IMG/VR virus record: IMGVR_UViG_3300033075_001196 | Coordinates: 60,388 to 124,387 of that record | Strand: one strand, 5' to 3' | DNA length: 64,000 nt | Source: a virus | Taxonomy: Duplodnaviria > Caudoviricetes | Shown here: piece after piece, positions 31,213-60,907 of the stretch | Layout: each line of letters begins with the position of its first letter | Position numbering within the stretch: position 1 is the first letter of the stretch | The notes under the pieces: generated by a model | Databases searched by the model: none | What the model saw: only the letters and a program-made list of their open reading frames with translations | What the model was told of the DNA's origin: nothing | Made by a program: the position numbers and the translations under genes

Positions 31213-33069
31213 TTATTTAATTTCACAACCATCAGGTCCACAAGCTATTTCTCCACTAAGATCCGTATTGTCCTCCATCTCAAGTACTTTTGATAAATCT
31301 ATATCATGCAATGATTCAGATAATCTATTATATTCGTCTTCAGTAATATCTTCGAAAGGAGTCTGTTTATAAGATCCTCCGTCGTACGGCAGTACTGATA
31401 TTCCATTGTAAATTTCCCGATTCTCCCATAACCATTCACCTATTGCATACCATTCATGATCTTTAATATTTACTGTTACTGATACATTATGGTAATTACT
31501 TCCTGTTCTGTGGCCTGGTTTTATCCAATCAGTTTGAATACGTTTAACTCTATCTAATAACTGCAATGGTGACTCATACCTCAAGGAAGATCCAATTGGT
31601 GCTTTTTGTGGCACACAAATAATTGCTGTATCATGTGGTCTAAAGAAATCATCTTCAAGTAATTGTGGGTGATTTTCTAATAAGTATTTATATATAGCTT
31701 CATTCTTATTGACTCTCATTCTTCTTAAATAAAAATCATTAAACCAAGCATGAATTCCTGAGCTAGTTCCTAATACTATACTGGTAGTTCCTGAAGGTTT
31801 TATTGTATTGCATCTTGCGGCTTTATTGATACCAATAATTGCTGCCACCCTTTCGTTTTCCTCTTTAACAATTTTCGCAGCTTCCTTAATATTATATTTA
31901 AAAATTTCATTTGATGCAATTCCCGTCATTCCAATTCCAATTAAAGCTTCTCGTTCTGTATTCCTTTTCCAAATTGGCCTTAAATAATGAAAATCTGTAT
32001 ATGACGCTTGAAGAGTCCCAATAAATGCTGCTGCTCTAGATCTATTATTAAAATCTTCTTGAGATTCAATATCACTTGCATTAATTTCACAAAGATTACA
32101 AAATTGATTTCTGATTAGGGAAATTTCTGCGCAAGGATTAGTCGCAATGTCCTTATCATTAGTAAAAAATATCCCTGGTTCACCTGCTCCTGACGCTTCA
32201 ATCCTTTTCCATAAATCTAAAAAGAAATCTTTAGTAATTTTATGTCTCAATAAAACTACTGAATTATTAGCTCTTCCTCTTTGAGGATTATTCTCCCACC
32301 AATTTCCGGATTTAGCTGCCAGCATATCATCATCATCTGCATTAAATAATGATATTAATGCCGCTCTTCTTATTCCACCAGCTAATACTGCGTCTGCTTC
32401 ATGGCATATTATATCATGGCATTCAATTGGAGTTAATTGATCTCCATCTTTTTTAGCAGATAATATTCCTTCTATTTTTACCAAACATTCTTTCAATGGT
32501 TGAGCTCCAGGAGCCTTTCCACCTGAAGTAATTAATCTAGAGCCTTTAGGTCGAATATCTCTAAAATCAAATTGTATTGTACTTCCACCGCTGTAATATG
32601 ATTTTATTAATATTTTTATCGCATCTGCCCAACCTTCTATACTATCTGCAACTAGCCACCTTCGTGTTTTATCTTTGTTTGGTTTTCTAATATCTGGCAG
32701 TTGCTCTACTTGATGTTTTTGGACTCCAAATCCAACTCCGCACCCACTTAATAAAAGGAACATAATTTCAGAAAAGGCTGCAATATTATCTATTGGAAGA
32801 TATGCACAATTAAATATTCTATTTGGGGTTATTTCAATTGGTTTTCCTGCAAATTGCAATGATCTCATTGAAGGCAATACCTTCTTATCATAGACAAATT
32901 TATATGCCTCATTAATTTCATTTGCTAAATGAGGAAATTTAAAAACATGCATTTCTTTATTTCGATCAACAATTTCTTCCCACGTTTCTCTTCTCTTTAA
33001 TTTATCATTATACTTAGCATACTTCATATGTATTGCTAAATCTGACATAATTTTGTGATTTAAATCCAT
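31213..33069 (-). CDS. nrdJ: Class II (adenosylcobalamin-dependent) ribonucleotide reductase
   Basis: RETWEE, PSMRSL, FNC, GGIRRAA, NPCAEI, CNL, TIKPSGT, C-terminal CGPDGC. Confidence 0.93.
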   Translation of the reverse strand: MDLNHKIMSDLAIHMKYAKYNDKLKRRETWEEIVDRNKEMHVFKFPHLANEINEAYKFVYDKKVLPSMRSLQFAGKPIEITPNRIFNCAYLPIDNIAAFSEIMFLLLSGCGVGFGVQKHQVEQLPDIRKPNKDKTRRWLVADSIEGWADAIKILIKSYYSGGSTIQFDFRDIRPKGSRLITSGGKAPGAQPLKECLVKIEGILSAKKDGDQLTPIECHDIICHEADAVLAGGIRRAALISLFNADDDDMLAAKSGNWWENNPQRGRANNSVVLLRHKITKDFFLDLWKRIEASGAGEPGIFFTNDKDIATNPCAEISLIRNQFCNLCEINASDIESQEDFNNRSRAAAFIGTLQASYTDFHYLRPIWKRNTEREALIGIGMTGIASNEIFKYNIKEAAKIVKEENERVAAIIGINKAARCNTIKPSGTTSIVLGTSSGIHAWFNDFYLRRMRVNKNEAIYKYLLENHPQLLEDDFFRPHDTAIICVPQKAPIGSSLRYESPLQLLDRVKRIQTDWIKPGHRTGSNYHNVSVTVNIKDHEWYAIGEWLWENREIYNGISVLPYDGGSYKQTPFEDITEDEYNRLSESLHDIDLSKVLEMEDNTDLSGEIACGPDGCEIK

Positions 33070-33624
33070 TTATATTTCCTTTTTATTTTTTGTTATTATA
33101 ATTTCTGTTGGATATTTTTCAACTACTTTAAAGTCCTTTGGTGTAAATTTTTCAATCAATCGTTTTGAAAAGTAATACCTTTGCGAGTCAACTGGTTTAA
33201 ATATTAATTTATTGCAATATGACAAATGCTCTTCAAAGAATGGTATTATTTCATCTCTATATATTTTTGCTATTGTATTACTCCTTTTATCCCAATCCTG
33301 TGATGATGAATTTGATGGCAATTCTTGATATATTGGTTTATCATTTTCATCATACCACCAAGTTTTAAGTTCAAAATATGGATCTGCTACTGGTTGGTAT
33401 GTAATTCTAACATCATAAATATTTCCTACTACATCTGAATACCTAAACCATCCCTTTCCCACTTTTCTATATTCATATGAATTGTTTGGATTCAATAATT
33501 CAACAAGTGTAATATATGTCTCAAATAAATTTCTTTCGAGCACATTAAATTCCTTTCCTTCAAGTAGTTCTAATCTAATTATTTCTTTTTTTAGGAAATC
33601 AAAATATATTTCTGTTAGCTTCAT
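33070..33624 (-). CDS. Hypothetical protein
   Basis: 184-aa ORF. Confidence 0.7.
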   Translation of the reverse strand: MKLTEIYFDFLKKEIIRLELLEGKEFNVLERNLFETYITLVELLNPNNSYEYRKVGKGWFRYSDVVGNIYDVRITYQPVADPYFELKTWWYDENDKPIYQELPSNSSSQDWDKRSNTIAKIYRDEIIPFFEEHLSYCNKLIFKPVDSQRYYFSKRLIEKFTPKDFKVVEKYPTEIIITKNKKEI

Positions 33625-33626
33625 TT

Positions 33627-34466
33627 TTATACTCCTGTTAATTTATCATACGCACTGACGTGCAACCTTGTCAAGCCAATAAAACCATATTTCTTGGACA
33701 TTTCTAAAACAAAATGGGTTCGTTCGTGAAAGTTATCTCTACTTACTAATCCAGGCATACAACACACATTTTGTAGTGGTATGTTAAACGGTTTAATATA
33801 TGTTTCAAACATTTCAAATATATCATCTTCATTTGTAATTACAAATTTAAATTGATAATTTGTGTGTTCCATAATTCTCTTAATTGATAATGGGACTATT
33901 CTTTGTTTTTCAGTCATTCCACTATTAGATAATTTTGGAGAACAATTAATTTGATCTAATATATTAAATAAATCGTCATGAATATAATTTCTACCATTAG
34001 TTTCTATTTCATGATATACTTTGCATTTTTGACCGCCATTGTCATATAGTTGCCAAAACCTATCAAAATTTATAATTGATTCTTGATGTTGTCTAATTGT
34101 TGGCTCACCACCAGTCCATATTAAATGAATTAATCCATTTCTGATATTATCATATAACCCTTCTTCTTTCCATCCATTAATTAATTCTTCAAATTCAACA
34201 TAATTTCCTCTTAACCAAACAGGAGTAGTATCACAGCTCCAAGTTGCCTTTCCTTCCTTTTCTAAATCACCAATAAATGCATCATTTAAATCAGGATTAA
34301 TCTCTCCCTTTTTAATTTTATTTATGTATTGAATACTAGAGCCACATTGAAGATCACAAGTAGTTAATCTAATAAAATAAGAAGGGACTCCACTCGATTT
34401 GCCCTCTCCCTGAATACTGTAGAATTTTTCTGACAGAAGGAACTTATTTGGTAATATTTTTGTCAT
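33627..34466 (-). CDS. queE: 7-carboxy-7-deazaguanine synthase (radical SAM)
   Basis: FYSIQGEG, FIRLTTCDLQC..(insertion)..CDT, TGGEP, EIETNG, SPKL, FKFV, RLH. Confidence 0.9.
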   Translation of the reverse strand: MTKILPNKFLLSEKFYSIQGEGKSSGVPSYFIRLTTCDLQCGSSIQYINKIKKGEINPDLNDAFIGDLEKEGKATWSCDTTPVWLRGNYVEFEELINGWKEEGLYDNIRNGLIHLIWTGGEPTIRQHQESIINFDRFWQLYDNGGQKCKVYHEIETNGRNYIHDDLFNILDQINCSPKLSNSGMTEKQRIVPLSIKRIMEHTNYQFKFVITNEDDIFEMFETYIKPFNIPLQNVCCMPGLVSRDNFHERTHFVLEMSKKYGFIGLTRLHVSAYDKLTGV

Positions 34467-34472
34467 AATTTT

Positions 34473-34712
34473 TTATTTAAGATCTACTGGAGTTAACGTT
34501 CCATCTTCTATGGATTTTCTAATCCACCGCATGAAATAAATTGCTTTATCAGTAGCTAATAATGTAGCCGTACCAATATCGTGTAATGGAACTTGAAATA
34601 AATATTCATTTGTGGTGTCTGGTTCACCTATTACATAATAGAAAATACCTGCCCTGAATGAGTCGAAAGCCACAATATTGTTTTTTATAAGATTTGTTAA
34701 ATTTACATCCAT
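34473..34712 (-). CDS. Hypothetical protein (start probably ATG 34712)
   Basis: MDVNL...FMRWIRK; this start avoids overlap with the upstream ORF. Confidence 0.65.
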   Translation of the reverse strand: MDVNLTNLIKNNIVAFDSFRAGIFYYVIGEPDTTNEYLFQVPLHDIGTATLLATDKAIYFMRWIRKSIEDGTLTPVDLK

Positions 34713-36082: not shown

Positions 36083-37462
36083 TTACCAACCTGGTTTTTT
36101 ATCTTGTTTTGAAAATAGTTCTGCATATCTTTTCTTTGCATTACTTTTATTAAATTCATTATCTGATTGCATTTTCGCGGAGGTCTTCTTTCCATCCTCA
36201 GATACTTCATCATATATTTCTATAGCACCGCGATTTGTATCCATCATTACTGGAAAGGTCATCCCATCTGCACCAAATCTGTTTTTAATAACATGCATTC
36301 TAGCAGTGTTTGCTAATTTATCTTGTCTCTTTCTTGATAATGATGCTACAAAATCCGCTGGAAAGATTTTTGAATAAGCTGAAGATATTTTATTTGCTTC
36401 TAAAACATCAGCATCCAATCCTTCCCTATTAGCTTGAGACACCGTCCAAACTGGAACCTGCAATTCGCCTGCAAATCCTTTAAGGTCTTCATATAGTGAT
36501 TTCAATATATGTTCTTCTTTATCAGAAGTGCCAGTATATTTTAATAAATCAGCATAATCAATCACTATTAAATCAGGAACTATGCCAATCAACTTTGATT
36601 TCTCAATATGTGCTCTAAGTCCCATTAATGATATTGATCTCATTGGATACCATTTGATATACAATTTACCTGGAACATCTTTTAGAATTTCCGGCAATCT
36701 ATCCTTATGTATTGGCAATTTATCTAGAGATATTCCTGATATGACTGCATCATATCTTAATCCACTATATGATTCATTTAATTCCAATGAATAATGAAAC
36801 ACAGTATAATTGTGTTTTATAGCGTGTGCTCCAATATTGGTCAATATCCATGATTTTCCACCTCCAGATGACGCTACAAATACTCCTAATTCTCCAGCAG
36901 ATAATCCACCTTTAAGTAATGTGTCTAATACTGGCCAACCAGTAGGTATTGGACTTCTAGCATCTGTTGTGTATCTAGGTTCAATATCTTCTAGATAATC
37001 TAAACCAATATTATTGGACATTCCAACTTTAAGAGCCCGGTCAATAATTTCCTTTATTGCATCATATTTCTCAAGTTTTAAATATTCAACCGATTGTAAA
37101 ATAGCTGATTTTAATTCTTGATTCTTACAAAATGATACTGTTTCGTTTTTTACAAATTCTAAATCTGACGCATCTATTTGTTTAATAGATTCTCGAAGAG
37201 TACTGATTATCTCCTGCCTTAATAGCTCATCATCAACCCTGTCTGTATATACTTTTAGTACATCTATGGTTGGAATTTTCTTATACTCATTATAATAAGT
37301 AAAACATTTCTTTACTATCCATTTAATTGATGCTGATTCAAAGTATTCTTCTTTAAGTATATCATATACCTGACTTATGAATACTACATCAGTTAATACT
37401 GATCCAATTAATTTGGTTTGAAATGAATGTCCATACTTACTAATCGAATCACGACTTTCCAT
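36083..37462 (-). CDS. Replicative DnaB-like helicase (gp41-like)
   Basis: IPTGW..LD..GGL..GEL, SGGGKS, SLEL, IDYADL, SQANR, KNRFG. Confidence 0.93.
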   Translation of the reverse strand: MESRDSISKYGHSFQTKLIGSVLTDVVFISQVYDILKEEYFESASIKWIVKKCFTYYNEYKKIPTIDVLKVYTDRVDDELLRQEIISTLRESIKQIDASDLEFVKNETVSFCKNQELKSAILQSVEYLKLEKYDAIKEIIDRALKVGMSNNIGLDYLEDIEPRYTTDARSPIPTGWPVLDTLLKGGLSAGELGVFVASSGGGKSWILTNIGAHAIKHNYTVFHYSLELNESYSGLRYDAVISGISLDKLPIHKDRLPEILKDVPGKLYIKWYPMRSISLMGLRAHIEKSKLIGIVPDLIVIDYADLLKYTGTSDKEEHILKSLYEDLKGFAGELQVPVWTVSQANREGLDADVLEANKISSAYSKIFPADFVASLSRKRQDKLANTARMHVIKNRFGADGMTFPVMMDTNRGAIEIYDEVSEDGKKTSAKMQSDNEFNKSNAKKRYAELFSKQDKKPGW

Positions 37463-38500
37463 ATATTTCTAATCTATTGTAACTGTTGTGAAGCCAAGTG
37501 TGTGGATCCTTAATCATTGAATTTAATCCATCTTCAAAAAACATTTCTAAAAATTTCTTCTTATCTAAAGTGACATCATCTCTTATTTTATTCAATATAT
37601 TCAATTTAGCATGGGCTGATATATCTGTTACTCTTAGCTGCATCAATTGATAATTCAATTTAATTTTTTCTGTTGATTCCATTATAGTGGAATATATTTT
37701 TACTTTTGGAAATTCAATTGCCTTTAATTTTGTTATTTCTATAAATTCATCAACGCTTAATTCACTATTAATAAATTCAGGATATCTTTTTAACATTGTT
37801 TTCAATCCAATTCCATTTACTCCAGGAATATTATCAGATGCGTCTCCGATCAATGTTCTATAAATTAAATAATTTTTACTTAGAAAACCAAATTCCTTTT
37901 CAATTAATTGTCTTGTATATGATAGTTTTTTAATAGGACTCCATACTGTTACATCATCAGTCACCAACTGAAGAAAATCTCTGTCACTAGAGCAGATTGT
38001 AATTTTACTATTAAATTGTCTAAAATGTTCAATTAAATATGCTACCGAATCATCTGCTTCAATATTATCTACAACCACAACTGATATTGGTAATGTATCA
38101 AGATATTGAATTATTCTACTGAATTGGGCTTTCATTGATTTTTGTTCATCTATCAAATCTCGAAATTCATCATGGCGATTGAATCTTGTTGTATTTTTTC
38201 GATTGGCTTTATACTCAGGATATATTTTTCTACGCCTTTGGGATCCGCCGACCCCATCAAATACAACTATACATTTAGTTGGTAGCTCCTTTCGGATTAA
38301 TGCCCCAATTGATCTTAAAAATCCAACAACACCACCAACATGATCTCCATTATCATTTAATGATGGGACGTTGCTAAAAACACGAATAAAAGTGTTTGTC
38401 AGGTGCCGTCGATGATGAGAACTCTACTATTAGTAGTATATGGTTCTCCATCGACGGCATATAAATTGTTAAATATTGTTAATAAATGATCTTTATTCAT
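37449..38500 (-). CDS. 5'-3' exonuclease/flap endonuclease (T4 RNase H/PolI N-domain-like), split over two frames at 38404-38397; ~348 aa if joined
   Basis: Frame 1 from ATG 38500: ...RVLIIDGT-TGA; frame 2: (T)NTFIR..GGVVGFL..VVFDG..RRKIYPEYKANR..EADD..SSDRD..GDASDNIPGVNGIG. Confidence 0.9.
38404..38459 (-). other. Coding-region RNA hairpin (11+6+5 bp) ending at the frame break
   Basis: TGCCGTCGATG/CATCGACGGCA, GAGAAC/GTTCTC and TACTA/TAGTA inverted repeats. Confidence 0.9.
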
Positions 38501-39459
38501 ATGATAATTTTTTGTTTTATAAAATCTATTATATTTTCAGCCGTCTCCAATTCTCGTTGCCATATAATCAATAATTCGTGTCCTGAATCGATAGCTAATT
38601 GATTTTTCTTTCGGTCTGTTTCCCAAACATCTTTTGCATATCTATTCATACTATTATCATAATAATTAGAATCATATACTTCAGGATCCATGTGCCAATA
38701 TGTTCCATTAAATTCAATTACTAAATTTAGCTCAGATACAAATATATCAAACGGCCGGCCTTTAATTATTTTTTCTGATTCAATTGTATATCCTAAATCA
38801 ATTAATGTGGTTTCAATTAAAATATGACCTTTACTTTTGAATATTGGTTTATGAATACCATCTACCCATTGTTGTTTGCAAATTTTAGATAATTTAGCCC
38901 TTGTCTCGGCAGACGCTTTATAATTTTCAGGCATACAATTTCCTCTAGCCCTTGCAGATGCTGATTGTAATACTCGAGTTTCTTCCGAAATTGCTTTACC
39001 TATTTGATTGGCTGAAATCTTTGCTTTAGTTTCTTCAGTGTGCCACACTTTATTGTTATTACGCCGTGATTCAACTCGTTTGGCTGCTGCTTCCTTAGTT
39101 CCGTTTTTTGGTGCACAATATGTTTCCATATTATGCTTAGAAAGTTTCTTCAATTCTGTAATGTAGTCGATGTTATCAAGATCATTCCAGAATTTATTTA
39201 TTGAAATTGACATTTTCAGTTTTGATGCATCACTATATTTGATAGGTTTACTATTACGAATATTATTAGCTACTTTACCTTGCAATGATCTTAAAGTTTT
39301 TTTTAAAACGGACCAATCATATGTTTGAAAAAATGCATGCATTAATGGAGTAAATTCAGCCTTTGTCATTTTCATACTTTTACGATATGAATTTAGTCCA
39401 AAAATTGGAATATTAATATCCATTAATGCATTATACATTTCAATTACTAATGTGTCCAT
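38497..39459 (-). CDS. Homing endonuclease (NUMOD3-like repeats + Vsr/DUF559-like domain)
   Basis: HTEETKAKIS, SEETR, SAETRAKLS; FDI..IEFNGTYWH..D..K..G..IIW. Confidence 0.82.
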   Translation of the reverse strand: MDTLVIEMYNALMDINIPIFGLNSYRKSMKMTKAEFTPLMHAFFQTYDWSVLKKTLRSLQGKVANNIRNSKPIKYSDASKLKMSISINKFWNDLDNIDYITELKKLSKHNMETYCAPKNGTKEAAAKRVESRRNNNKVWHTEETKAKISANQIGKAISEETRVLQSASARARGNCMPENYKASAETRAKLSKICKQQWVDGIHKPIFKSKGHILIETTLIDLGYTIESEKIIKGRPFDIFVSELNLVIEFNGTYWHMDPEVYDSNYYDNSMNRYAKDVWETDRKKNQLAIDSGHELLIIWQRELETAENIIDFIKQKIII

Positions 39460-40328
39460 TATCCTTCTTCTGATACAAAGTCTTCATCTGAAACTGTTAT
39501 GTCGTCCACTCCAAAATCTTCATTAACTTTATATTTCATAATCAATGCATTACATAAAATGTCATATAAATAATCATGCAACGGTTTGTTATGAATCAAT
39601 AAATTAGCAAAATCCTTAGAATAGAATTTCAATTCATCTATGCTGGCCAATTCTCCGGTTTTAGGATTAACTATTTCCATTTTTGGAAAAGTTAAATGAT
39701 ATCCGTTTCCACTTTTAATAATCAATTTATGACTTTCTAGTGTATCTATCCAAGAACCATAATCATCAATCCCAGAATTAAAATAAATATCATAATCGAC
39801 AGTCCTTAATGGTGGGCCTAACCGGTTTTTTACAACTTGTGCCCTAGTTTTTATACCAACTATTTCATCTCCCGATTTCATTTTCACCTTAATTTGGCCC
39901 AAGGATTTTAATCTAATTCTAACTGATGCATGAAATGCCAAGGCTTTACCACCACTAGTTGTATTATGATTAATCCTGCCATTAGCATTATATGTATGTG
40001 AATTGGCTACTTCAATATCCACTACTTGCATTCTGCCGAAGGTCTTAACAAATTCTGGATGGTCTTTAAGATAAATTTCTTTATCTGCTTCCATAATTCT
40101 GTGATTTGCAGTACCTTTTAATATTCCATCAGTATAAAATTCTTCTACTGATTCTTTGACTACAAAACTTTTAATTGGATTATAGGTTAATTCACCATTT
40201 ACAGTCGTTTCAACTTCAATTCCTAATTCACTGACATCATAAATGTCAGGAGTTTCAAAATCATTATTCATTGCAAATCTTTCTGAAAATTCTGCTAATG
40301 TAATTTCTTCATAAATAAATTCGTCCAT
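39459..40328 (-). CDS. recA: RecA/UvsX C-terminal half preceded by a 122-aa C-intein
   Basis: GTANHR (block B), VVDIEV..HTYNANGRINHN|TTSGGKALAFHASVRI, VKNRLGPP. Confidence 0.93.
   Translation of the reverse strand: MDEFIYEEITLAEFSERFAMNNDFETPDIYDVSELGIEVETTVNGELTYNPIKSFVVKESVEEFYTDGILKGTANHRIMEADKEIYLKDHPEFVKTFGRMQVVDIEVANSHTYNANGRINHNTTSGGKALAFHASVRIRLKSLGQIKVKMKSGDEIVGIKTRAQVVKNRLGPPLRTVDYDIYFNSGIDDYGSWIDTLESHKLIIKSGNGYHLTFPKMEIVNPKTGELASIDELKFYSKDFANLLIHNKPLHDYLYDILCNALIMKYKVNEDFGVDDITVSDEDFVSEEG
39963..40328 (-). mobile_element. Atypically split intein C-fragment (122 aa)
   Basis: Contains blocks B, F and G; ends in HN; Thr at +1. Confidence 0.9.
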
Positions 40329-41065
40329 AATATTTTTTTTATTTCGTCTATGTTATTGTTAATTTCGGTTTCCCATAATATAATATATTTAAAGTTGTTT
40401 TCCAAAAATTTTGCCTGTTTTCTTTCATCTCTTTCCCAAATTTTATTTACAGGGGCTCTGAACACTGTTTTATTTGCATCAAATATATCTGGATTAGCAT
40501 GCCAATAATCTCCGTATACCTCAACTACAGCATGTTGTTCAGGCAAATAAAAGTCTGGAATATATGTTAATGATCCGAATGTGAATGGCTTCTCATATTC
40601 GAATTTTAAATTAAATTCATCTAATATTGTCGCAATTATATATTCTAATGAATTCATATTTATTCCTTTAAAACAATATTGTTTATTCCTTGCAGAATAT
40701 AACATTCTTTTAAATTTTTCAACATCATTCAATTTAGCATCAGCCCACATTTTCTTTGCTTTTTTAGAAATTTTTTCACACCGTTCACTTGATTTCATTG
40801 ATGTCATAAATTTTTCTTTAAATGTTGGATCCGCCATATTGGCTTTATTTTTTATAACTGATTTAACATATGCTCCAGATGCCCTTCTGTTTTTAATTTG
40901 CTGATCGGAATATTCTTTATCCTTCCAACGATCACTATTTTGTTTTCCTATTATATACTTCCATTTATCTGATCTGATTTGGTATTTCTTTCTAACATCA
41001 ATTGATGCGTCAAGACTTTTATATAAGAATAGGAGGAAATTGTCAATCGTTTGAAACTTTATATC
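40295..41065 (-). CDS. Vsr/DUF559-like homing endonuclease between the RecA intein halves; frame is open up to 41065 but the first ATG is at 40837
   Basis: MNSLE..YIPDF..VEVYGDYWH..ILWE; 76 extra stop-free codons upstream with no ATG/GTG/TTG. Confidence 0.78.
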   Translation of the reverse strand, partial: DIKFQTIDNFLLFLYKSLDASIDVRKKYQIRSDKWKYIIGKQNSDRWKDKEYSDQQIKNRRASGAYVKSVIKNKANMADPTFKEKFMTSMKSSERCEKISKKAKKMWADAKLNDVEKFKRMLYSARNKQYCFKGINMNSLEYIIATILDEFNLKFEYEKPFTFGSLTYIPDFYLPEQHAVVEVYGDYWHANPDIFDANKTVFRAPVNKIWERDERKQAKFLENNFKYIILWETEINNNIDEIKKILWTNLFMKKLH

Positions 41066-41789
41066 TTATTTTTATTTTTGTAGATAATGGGTCTACACAA
41101 TATGGATCTCCAAACATTGCATTCATCTTCACTCTTAGCTGATTAGTAAATATTAAACATATATTTTCTTTACTAATCATTCCAGTAATCTTCCTCATTG
41201 CTTTTGATAAAATAATAGCCTTATCTGTAGCATATCCATCTTTAGCATAATCAGCTTCCAACTCCTTTAAAGTAGTGGCGCCCATTACTGAATCTACTAA
41301 TATTGTTACTAGTTTTTTCTTATCTGAAGATCTCACTTTTTCAATTATAGCCTCAATCGCATCAAATATATCTTCCAATGCTTCTAATTGAAGATACATT
41401 AATTTAGTTATGTCAACTCCTATAGCAGCTAAATATTCCCTACTTACTGCAGATTCTGTGTCAATGTATACCGCGATACCGCCTTTCTTTTGGGTATTTG
41501 CTAATGCATACGCCCCTAATAAACTCTTACCAGATGCCTCTAATCCTGTTATTTCAATGATTTTACCTACTGGCCATCCGCCATGTGGTCTATTACTAAC
41601 TCCAATGTCTAGTAATGTGTGGCCAGTAGGTATCCAATCTTTAACATCAGTGGCAACATTTGGATCTGATAAATAATATGCAGCCTGGTGACCGTGATCC
41701 TTAAATTTTGTATTGATTGCTGAAATCAATTCAGATGATAATGCATCAACGATTGCAGGTGCAACCTTCTCATTCTTATTCTTTGCCAT
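41043..41789 (-). CDS. recA: RecA/UvsX N-terminal half + 18-aa N-intein
   Basis: IPTG..LD, GLEASGKS, YIDTE, VDSV, FTNQLR..FGDPY|CVDPLSTKIKIRYKVSND*. Confidence 0.93.
   Translation of the reverse strand: MAKNKNEKVAPAIVDALSSELISAINTKFKDHGHQAAYYLSDPNVATDVKDWIPTGHTLLDIGVSNRPHGGWPVGKIIEITGLEASGKSLLGAYALANTQKKGGIAVYIDTESAVSREYLAAIGVDITKLMYLQLEALEDIFDAIEAIIEKVRSSDKKKLVTILVDSVMGATTLKELEADYAKDGYATDKAIILSKAMRKITGMISKENICLIFTNQLRVKMNAMFGDPYCVDPLSTKIKIRYKVSND
41046..41099 (-). mobile_element. Atypically split intein N-fragment (18 aa)
   Basis: Block A-like CVDPLSTKIKI directly after RecA GDPY. Confidence 0.85.
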
Positions 41790-60247: not shown

Positions 60248-60907
60248 TTATTTTCTATATTCTTCTATTAATTTAAAAACATCTGATAAAACTTCATGTC
60301 TGTGATTTTCTTTTAATTCAATAAATGTAATGTGATCGGATTTCTTCAAAATTGATAATATTGTTCCAACAGATTTAAACCTAGTTGATAAATCAATTTG
60401 ATCTAAATCGCCACAAAAAATCATTTTTGATTCTTTTCCTAACCTTCCCAAACACATTATTAATTGGGTTTCTGTTAAATTCTCGAATTCATCTACTATA
60501 ATAACTGAACGTTCGAATGTCCTTCCCCTAAAATGGGTTAAAGCACATAATTCAATTTTCTTATCAGCCTCTAATTGTTTGACCTTTTCAGCATTATATG
60601 CTTTATTCATATTGTCTCTAATTGGAACTAACCATGGATCCATTTTTTCTTGTATTGTTCCTGGTAAGAATCCATTTTCTTCAGAAGAAACAGTTGGTCT
60701 AGTTATAACTATCTTTTCTACTTGTCTGGTAAAAAATAGATCCAATGCAATTTGAGTTGCCAACGCGGTTTTACCAGAACCTGCCCTTCCCATTAGGAAG
60801 TTGATTGGTTTTTGAATTATTAATTCTTTAGCTAATTTTTGTTCTTCATTAAGAACAATATTAAATTTGACATCACCCTTAGGTTTTCGTTTAGTACTAT
60901 TATCCAT
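60248..60907 (-). CDS. phoH: PhoH-like ATPase
   Basis: GRAGSGKT, ITRP, GFLPG, RGRTF, VDE, GD..QID, NHRH. Confidence 0.93.
   Translation of the reverse strand: MDNSTKRKPKGDVKFNIVLNEEQKLAKELIIQKPINFLMGRAGSGKTALATQIALDLFFTRQVEKIVITRPTVSSEENGFLPGTIQEKMDPWLVPIRDNMNKAYNAEKVKQLEADKKIELCALTHFRGRTFERSVIIVDEFENLTETQLIMCLGRLGKESKMIFCGDLDQIDLSTRFKSVGTILSILKKSDHITFIELKENHRHEVLSDVFKLIEEYRK

Follow-up and report, generated by a model that had tools for sequence, protein, structure and literature searches.

How can a gene be expressed when a stop codon and a change of reading frame interrupt it inside its first catalytic motif? The question is raised by a flap endonuclease (FEN) gene, that is, a 5'-3' exonuclease gene, in the 64,000 nucleotides (nt) of DNA analysed here (the window), which span positions 60,388 to 124,387 of IMG/VR record IMGVR_UViG_3300033075_001196, a virus of the Caudoviricetes. 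Positions given below are those of the window, and the locus lies on its minus strand. The gene opens with a short reading frame that runs into a TGA within the DGxN motif, and the remainder of the enzyme is encoded 5 nt out of register. Sequence comparison makes it most likely that gaps of this kind, 5-7 nt long and kept in dozens of related phages, always behind a co-varying hairpin, are crossed by a ribosome hop. For the window itself, we put at roughly 0.7 the probability that a programmed short forward hop yields the canonical sequence IIDG-T-NTFIR and that the arrangement travels as a mobile cassette, in the manner of mobA and gene 60 of phage T4.

The interrupted FEN gene and its coding hairpin

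The initiating ATG of the gene (38500-38498) overlaps, as ATGA, the TGA (38499-38497) of an upstream open reading frame (ORF) of 320 amino acids (aa). The frame that begins there translates as MNKDHLLTIFNNLYAVDGEPYTTNSRVLIIDGT and then meets the TGA at 38401-38399 (Table 1). The body of the gene is open in the -1/+2 frame from the ACA at 38399-38397 to 37449, 5 nt out of register with the 33-codon ORF, and it matches the Pfam families 5_3_exonuc_N (PF02739; 104 bits, profile positions 11-164) and 5_3_exonuc (PF01367; 41 bits). Because the match to 5_3_exonuc_N begins only at profile position 11, the first ten profile positions sit in the 33-codon ORF. This ORF encodes the first catalytic Asp, that of the DGxN motif, and the body encodes the rest of the resolvase-like N-terminal domain and the SAM-fold C-terminal domain (PF01367). 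At the level of sequence, removal of 5 nt gives IIDG-T-NTFIR in a protein of 348 aa, the motif being identical to that of a contiguous homologue, P0001, described below. The -1 frame is shut by TAA TAG TAG nine codons 5' of the junction, so that any joining of the two halves must happen at G-T-stop. Genes of this gapped type are split or shortened by gene callers, and the product of the present one was called as 228 aa. The gapped gene provides the sole PF02739 match in the 124-kb record.

Directly ahead of the junction lies a predicted RNA hairpin. Its 3' arm consists of the VLIIDG codons and the first base of the take-off codon (A38404 of ACC), and its 5' arm lies in N-terminal codons upstream. 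The fold has an energy of -29.7 kcal/mol, compared with a mean of -10.4 for shuffled sequences (z -6.9), and none of 200 shuffles was as good. In a MAFFT alignment of 21 lineages, 98.6% of the cells of the basal 7-bp helix are paired and 27 cells have changed on both sides. The covariation score was 0.541 against 0.211 in shuffles, a value reached by none of 500 shuffles, and slid controls gave at most 0.21. In the 3' arm it is the I/V, Asp and Gly codons that co-vary, each at its third position. G.U pairs occupy 13 of the 147 helix cells; as these pairs work only in the sense-strand RNA, they argue for selection on that RNA.

The structure is found again in ten gapped lineages, with fold energies from -22 to -38 kcal/mol (z -4 to -8); in these the 3' arm takes in 0-3 nt of the take-off codon. 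Close contiguous alleles are hairpin-free: the corresponding region folds at -4.2 kcal/mol (z +1.2) in L033 and at -7.6 kcal/mol (z 0) in L037, which is 77% identical. An Rfam search with the hairpin returned only a chance-level snoRNA match (E 0.26), and no intrinsic terminator was found at the hairpin.

A first-pass annotation of this DNA had described the ATG, the frame, the stop, the 5-nt skip, the 348-aa product and the hairpin, and all of these lie on the minus strand where it had placed them. It correctly had the 3' arm reach one base into the take-off codon, and it regarded the 5' arm as tuned to the codons of the catalytic motif, an impression that the covariation through synonymous third positions bears out. 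The homologue alignment that it called for places the break at one conserved codon behind a co-varying hairpin, and the contiguous close relatives to which it looked for a counter-example, L033 and L037, have no hairpin. Its doubt about an assembly error, which would leave the hairpin unexplained, was also well founded.

An assembly error is excluded because the same 5 nt occur in independent contigs. The junction, GACGGCACCTGAC[A/G]AACAC[T/A]TTT, occurs in contigs of SRR32380201, SRR21677119, SRR132874xx, SRR349258xx, ERZ23498527/651 and ERZ4198739. It is the same in the ten contigs that were aligned, two ENA assemblies and Logan assemblies from at least four run series being their sources. 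An eleventh contig, from a third ENA assembly, has the junction beside an upstream protein that is 90% identical, and one contig of run X7, from another study, covers 38284-38675 free of indels. The truncated 228-aa FEN product of the locus is present on 13 contigs, and the exact 320-aa upstream protein on seven. Altogether at least 13 contigs show the break; they stem from several studies, were built by several assemblers, and have recA either intact or interrupted. Three polymorphisms within the lineage of the window, GTT>ATT (V>I, to a residue found in homologues) and ACA>ACG and ACT>ACA (both synonymous in the FEN frame), fit a coding constraint on both halves of the gene. No blastn match to the locus was found in the phage GenBank collection, and a scan of IMG/VR for the exact junction pattern found none either, near-identical records possibly lying outside the set searched. 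No RNA source is listed for the junction; run X19, which is labelled RNA-Seq and is probably DNA, has the cassette-free allele only.

Table 1. Features of the FEN locus (window positions)
Feature	Positions	Strand	Basis
Whole cassette: endonuclease gene, replacement FEN codons 1-33, hairpin and gap	38400..39457	-	blastn against L033, alignment
Free-standing homing-endonuclease-like gene, 320 aa; NUMOD3 motif and Vsr/MTES_1575-like C-terminal nuclease region	38497..39459	-	ORF, Pfam, relatives
Cassette-borne FEN N-terminal ORF, 33 codons, ..RVLIIDGT then TGA	38399..38500	-	Reading frames
Predicted RNA hairpin, 11 + 6 + 5 bp	38404..38459	-	Fold energy, covariation in 21 lineages
Proposed take-off codon ACC (Thr)	38402..38404	-	Same in all 10 contigs aligned
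In-frame TGA directly 3' of the take-off codon, next base C	38399..38401	-	Sequence
Proposed landing codon ACA (ACG in SRR349258xx variants), sharing the last base of the TGA; AAC 38396-38394 next	38397..38399	-	Sequence
FEN body, 315 codons plus stop	37449..38396	-	Pfam matches; protein 100% identical to contiguous P0001

The cassette and its putative endonuclease gene

The window holds a mobile cassette with a putative homing-endonuclease gene, as its structure and its presence/absence polymorphism show. The insert measures 1.06 kb, lies between recA and FEN, and has replaced the native FEN codons 1-28. A search with the FEN body found P0001, a contiguous FEN of 344 aa that is 100% identical over all 316 residues and has a different N-terminus, MSRYTELFQKLHSTTPLTSNSNVLIIDGTNTFIR. 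The contigs that carry P0001 (L032-L036) have flanks 99.0-99.9% identical to the window; the endonuclease gene is missing from them, and recA-C is coupled by ATGA straight to FEN. In blastn, L033 is 99.4% identical to the window at 45067-41018 and at 38400-31449, and has no match to 39457-38400. Near-identity to the endonuclease-less genomes restarts at 38400, one base ahead of the proposed landing codon. The native allele reads GTA TTA ATA ATT GAT GGG ACT AAC, compared with GTT CTC ATC ATC GAC GGC ACC TG ACA AAC in the window: the third position differs in every one of the VLIIDGT codons, and 5 nt have been added.

The endonuclease-like gene is ATGA-coupled to recA-C upstream as well as to the FEN start downstream. 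NUMOD3 scores 21 bits in the 320-aa protein, against a cut-off of 20.4. The nuclease domain is visible only via relatives, through precomputed matches to PF18741 and PF04480, with L060 at 16.9 bits, below the cut-off, and via the conserved acidic and aromatic motifs D..E.NG..WH.D and WQ..WE. Relatives also match PF07460. In L053 the cassette start, hairpin and gap are those of the window except for the ACT/ACA polymorphism, and the FEN body diverges about 35 nt past the gap. The cassette was found beside an intact recA of 397 aa and also beside an interrupted one. Its occurrence on another FEN body, together with the presence/absence polymorphism, is what homing by a free-standing endonuclease, with co-conversion tracts of varying extent, is expected to leave behind.

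The neighbouring recA gene is itself split in the window into three ORFs (39459-41789, minus strand). The first (41043-41789) encodes a RecA_N protein of 248 aa, and the second (40295-40837; 180 aa) is Pfam-negative. The third (39459-40328; 289 aa) matches RecA at residues 120-188 only, and its first ~118 residues end in ..NGRINHN before a T, in the manner of an intein C-terminus. Among the relatives, recA is an intact gene of 397 aa in L042, L045 and L053; L033 has a different insert, of 355 aa, and is only 83% identical to the window over this stretch. The interrupted recA may be a split-intein 'fractured gene' with an endonuclease of its own (cf. PMC2677866).

Stop-led gaps in related phages

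Homologues of the endonuclease occupy the same place at 55% (L054-58) and 42% (L059) identity, and the FEN gene beside them is broken at the same codon. The gaps there are in frame and 6 nt long, reading GGC CTT TGA CTT AAT in L054-58 and GGA CTT TAA CTA AAC in L059. We scanned IMG/VR for such gaps with patterns in which the take-off and landing triplets were left as N and TGG was permitted at the stop position; in the 5- and 7-nt patterns the stop after the take-off codon was set by the design of the pattern, and counts were taken from alignments. All 26 matches to the 6-nt pattern were FEN genes, and all 26 had a true stop (TGA, TAA or TAG, never TGG). The take-off codon was CTN in every one, and the landing codon was CTN in 24, the exceptions being CGA (L075) and GTA (L079). 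A control without the stop requirement (any 9 nt between GG and AAY) gave 35 matches, consisting of the same 26 and nine non-FEN sequences.

Gaps of 5 nt exist in at least seven versions. The 5-nt scan returned seven FEN matches and a group of ~20 contigs reading NTYIR, with the versions ACG TGA CA, CTG TAG TG, TTG TAG TG, ACT TAG CT and ACG TAG CG/CT. The 7-nt scan returned eight FEN matches, with the four versions CTC TAG/TAA CGTC, CTC TGA CAAC and CTA TAG AAAA. Deletion of the gap brings back DGxN in all 5-, 6- and 7-nt cases. All three stop codons are used at the site among the relatives, even within one lineage (TAA in L071, TGA in L072). Across 13 gapped lineages, neither the N-terminal ORF nor the body has lost its open frame or its conservation, in a region only 41-54% identical to L060 (the first row of the alignment), and further lesions were never found alongside the gaps.

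Two loci illustrate how such gaps change. L075 (7425-7456) reads GGA CTT TGA CGA AAT, with a gap of 6 nt and a Leu take-off codon, compared with GGA ACG TGA CA AAT, a gap of 5 nt and a Thr take-off codon, in L086 (2741-2771). The two have the same hairpin arms in near-identical cassettes, so that gap length and residue x can shift fast within one cassette lineage. The group of ~20 near-identical contigs (L102-L120, L141 and L142 in IMG/VR) has a 310-aa endonuclease homologue of 34% identity. The FEN start of this type comprises 42 codons and ends GGA TTG TAG TG AAT ACT TAC; its stop overlaps a GTG of the FEN frame, where gene callers start the FEN (the ORF of L102 begins at GTG 2470).

In five of the loci (L063, L065, L071, L077 and L080) a full recA lies directly upstream of the gapped FEN gene and the endonuclease gene is absent. 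These lineages retain both gap and hairpin, which points to persistence without homing drive. Judged from the sequences, this persistence speaks strongly against a hitch-hiking pseudogene.

A proposed hop over the stop and its alternatives

The three gap lengths, the three stop codons, the lack of sense inserts and the restored DGxN motif together indicate that the gap is not translated. We envisage that a ribosome on the 33-codon ORF would stall when UGA-C enters its A site, the peptidyl-tRNA-Thr then being paired to ACC. The hairpin would be melted while the stop occupies the A site and would refold as its 3' arm exits the ribosome, favouring forward movement; pairing of exiting mRNA has been proposed as the driver of forward bypassing in gene 60 (10.1101/2024.12.09.627546). 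The peptidyl-tRNA would re-pair 5 nt on, at the ACA that overlaps the A of the TGA, and decoding would restart at AAC to give a single 348-aa FEN with the predicted junction peptide VLIIDGTNTFIR. In the relatives, the ribosome would shift forward by 5-7 nt and resume at the Asn codon. In the window, as in most versions, the stop is followed by C. Following Poole, Brown and Tate in 1995, a C in this position is said to make the weakest context for termination in bacteria.

The putative target of the endonuclease would be the conserved IDGxNTFI-coding sequence of cassette-free phages, and recoding together with the gap probably renders the carrier immune to its own enzyme. A little less firmly than the hop in the window, we also favour the wider proposal of a natural and widespread family of 5-7 nt stop-hops. 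A coding hairpin that refolds just behind the ribosome would drive these hops, and a homing endonuclease, its carrier protected by the gap, would spread them among phages. The first-pass annotation had likewise suggested a programmed hop over the stop with a coding hairpin, and this part gains strong comparative support from the family of gaps, the co-varying hairpin and the hairpin-free close relatives. The purpose that it gave to the hop, dosing of the nuclease, found no support; the evidence points instead to a homing-endonuclease cassette with a recoded target and a gap.

The same annotation emphasized synonymous take-off and landing codons. Here ACC and ACA (or ACG) are indeed synonymous and matched at two of three bases, and similar pairs occur in most 5- and 6-nt versions; the rule is not universal, and the fit is poor in some 7-nt versions. 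As a consequence, re-pairing cannot be the sole determinant of landing. The sequences suggest that it helps and does not decide the landing, in the 7-nt gaps especially, and, with gap lengths that vary and landing codons that fit imperfectly, it may be pulling on the mRNA, rather than codon re-pairing, that sets the landing site.

Several points weigh against a hop. We infer the hop, the part played by the hairpin and the endonuclease target from comparative sequence alone. The lineages are related by descent, so that counts of contigs do not equal independent events, and the estimated completeness of the record, 69%, leaves room for a second FEN gene. Codon matches are imperfect: besides the landings in L075 and L079, the 7-nt pairs CTC..AAC and CTA..AAA match at one base. 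The distant contiguous alleles L005 (2642-2711, z -5.5) and L022 (2934-3003, z -3.1) fold significantly directly 5' of, or over, the DG codons, so that a hairpin may exist without a gap; these alleles could be healed cassettes or could reflect a pre-existing structure. Synthetic stop-hops are inefficient, at about 1%, and efficient hopping at this site would depend on the hairpin or on further signals. Finally, 5, 6 and 7 nt each lie within one base of two codons, and length alone would fit a mixture of -1 shift, readthrough and +1 shift that adds two residues.

This last point leads to the alternative that survives best, although we regard it as unlikely: conventional recoding, in which a -1 frameshift across 5 nt (giving IIDGT-L-T-NTFIR, peptide ..IIDGTLTNTFIR), readthrough of 6 nt or a +1 frameshift across 7 nt would add two residues to the protein. 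No gaps of 4 or 8 nt were present in the loci examined, and a hairpin-anchored scan of IMG/VR for gaps of 8-11 nt gave one chance match, to a non-FEN sequence, which speaks for this alternative. The CTN after the stop in 6-nt gaps might likewise be no more than a conserved Leu codon. One site would nevertheless require three different mechanisms. GAC GGC ACC TGA contains no slippery X XXY YYZ heptamer, and the structure is upstream rather than downstream. The 'extra residues' are not conserved, given that the near-identical cassettes of L075 and L086 differ in their gaps. If two residues were tolerated, sense inserts of two codons would be expected often, and the control scan found none at this site among the FEN genes of IMG/VR. 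Contiguous FEN proteins keep the motif throughout, with DG[L/T/M]N in 27 of 27 more distant relatives and DGxN also in the seven closest full-length ones.

Loss of function is less probable again. Under this alternative endonuclease-driven gene conversion has left the frameshift behind as a scar, carried along by the selfish gene, FEN is inactive, and the 5'-3' exonuclease of the host suffices. Mutants of T4 in RNase H survive on host Pol I, the break falls exactly at the junction of cassette and native sequence, and a body nearly identical to that of cassette-free relatives fits a recent invasion. What a recent scar does not readily accommodate is the recurrence of stop-led gaps at the same codon, with both halves open, across endonucleases of 42-100% identity and FEN N-termini of 41-54% identity, or the retention of the gap in five lineages that lack the endonuclease gene and hence its drive. 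The hairpin co-varies and the gapped genes show no additional lesions. In the 6-nt scan a stop stood directly after the take-off codon in 26 of 26 cases, a feature that the 5- and 7-nt patterns had by design.

We give slightly less credence still to a split enzyme, in which termination at the stop and restart next to it would produce two chains that assemble non-covalently: a 33-residue peptide, which contains the first catalytic Asp, and a body of 315 residues. Gene splitting by homing endonucleases is known from gene 39/60 and from fractured genes (10.1101/2022.08.31.505936; PMC2677866), and potential restart codons do occur in relatives, namely the GTG overlapped by the TAG-TG stops (L102) and an ATG two codons past the gap in L054. 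The window, however, has no ATG, GTG or TTG near the resume site, the first one inside the body frame being TTG 38156, and Shine-Dalgarno-like spacing is absent. The codon after the stop is CTT, CTC, CTA or CTG in 24 of the 26 6-nt gaps, and these are not normal starts, save for the rare CTG. Next to no weight attaches to a sequencing or assembly error, in favour of which nothing was found and against which stand run X7 and at least 13 contigs from different runs and assemblers, or to stop-codon reassignment, since, despite an anticodon-UCA tRNA in the record, TGA read as sense keeps the frame wrong and leads to a TAA 15 codons on, all three stops occupy the site in relatives, and TGA ends neighbouring genes in ATGA overlaps.

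A ribosome hop can be set beside known systems. Efficient bypassing has long been known from T4 gene 60 and its homologues and from mitochondrial bypass elements (PMC5009743). In T4 it is the homing-endonuclease element MobA that carries the gene 60 bypass (Huang 1988; Bonocora 2011; both as given in 10.1101/2022.08.31.505936). Both systems combine a free-standing endonuclease gene with a replacement, recoded target segment and a non-coding gap. In both, a stop stands right behind the take-off codon, the insert ends at or just past the landing codon, some lineages drop the endonuclease gene and retain the gap, and the gap is thought to shield the carrier from its own endonuclease. A 5' mRNA stem-loop is implicated in forward movement in T4, a part that the hairpin may play here.

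The two systems also differ. The gap is 50 nt in T4 (20 nt in one clade) and 5 nt here, or 5-7 nt in the relatives. The take-off stem-loop of gene 60 lies inside the gap, whereas here there is no room for one and the only structure is the upstream coding hairpin. MobA is an HNH enzyme, and the present endonuclease is NUMOD3/Vsr-like. The T4 target is a topoisomerase, split into two subunits, in contrast to the catalytic motif of FEN in a single gene. The take-off and landing codons match only partly here, and no signal in the nascent peptide is known.

Bypassing elements in the mitochondria of Magnusiomyces, or byps, are GC-rich inserts of 27-55 nt. They resemble the present gaps as short mobile inserts in conserved coding sequence that are neutralized at translation (Nosek et al. 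2015, cited in PMC5009743), and they differ in being mitochondrial and in having no known link to a homing endonuclease. The free-standing Seg and Mob homing endonucleases of T4-like phages leave their carriers immune by target-site polymorphism (PMC2330249, PMC10448857). Shared with them are an intergenic endonuclease gene beside a conserved target, presence/absence polymorphism, co-conversion of the flank and a recoded target site; unlike in those systems, immunity here would include a frame-breaking insert in an active-site motif, tolerable only if translation repairs it.

Synthetic stop-hops of +5 and +6 nt were described in Escherichia coli (Weiss, Dunn, Atkins & Gesteland 1987, reviewed in PMC5009743). 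There a peptidyl-tRNA leaves the codon ahead of a stop and re-pairs on a similar codon 5 or 6 nt on, so that 8-9 nt specify one residue, and the CUU-stop-CUN form prevails among the 6-nt relatives here. Those constructs are engineered and inefficient, whereas the present gaps are natural, conserved, linked to a mobile element and preceded by a co-varying hairpin. According to that 2016 review, short stop-hops were known from synthetic constructs only, and natural ones were expected and had not been found (PMC5009743); our full-text literature searches found no later report of a natural one.

If the hop is real, no natural stop-hop would precede it, and among phage bypass systems it would rank second, behind T4 gene 60. 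The family would constitute a natural, minimal and variable bypass system with dozens of alleles, three gap lengths, three stops and a co-varying hairpin, and with so many natural alleles one could test directly how far upstream mRNA refolding contributes to ribosome movement. A selfish endonuclease could then put a frame-breaking insert into active-site codons without killing the gene.

No tRNA genes were found inside the window. Elsewhere in the record, a phage tRNA-Thr(UGU) lies at L186:3502-3575 (G000:C1:43502-43575); it is cognate to ACA/ACG and weak on ACC. Eight other tRNA genes occur in the first 60 kb of the record. ARAGORN also reports the anticodon-UCA tRNA ('SeC'), outside the window at L185:16990-17064 (G000:C1:36990-37064), although TGA serves elsewhere in this phage as a stop. 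Such a tRNA, potentially able to read UGA, could compete with termination there, whereas a gap of 5 nt is beyond its repair.

A further mosaic region contains the ribonucleotide-reductase genes (window 31213-34480; L032:9762-12447), which are 89% identical to L032 amid genomes that are otherwise 99% identical. The genes encode 618 aa versus 536 aa, relatives have matches to intein-splicing and LAGLIDADG families, and extra ORFs of 79 or 158 aa are variably present. It is likely that this region records further mobile-element traffic.

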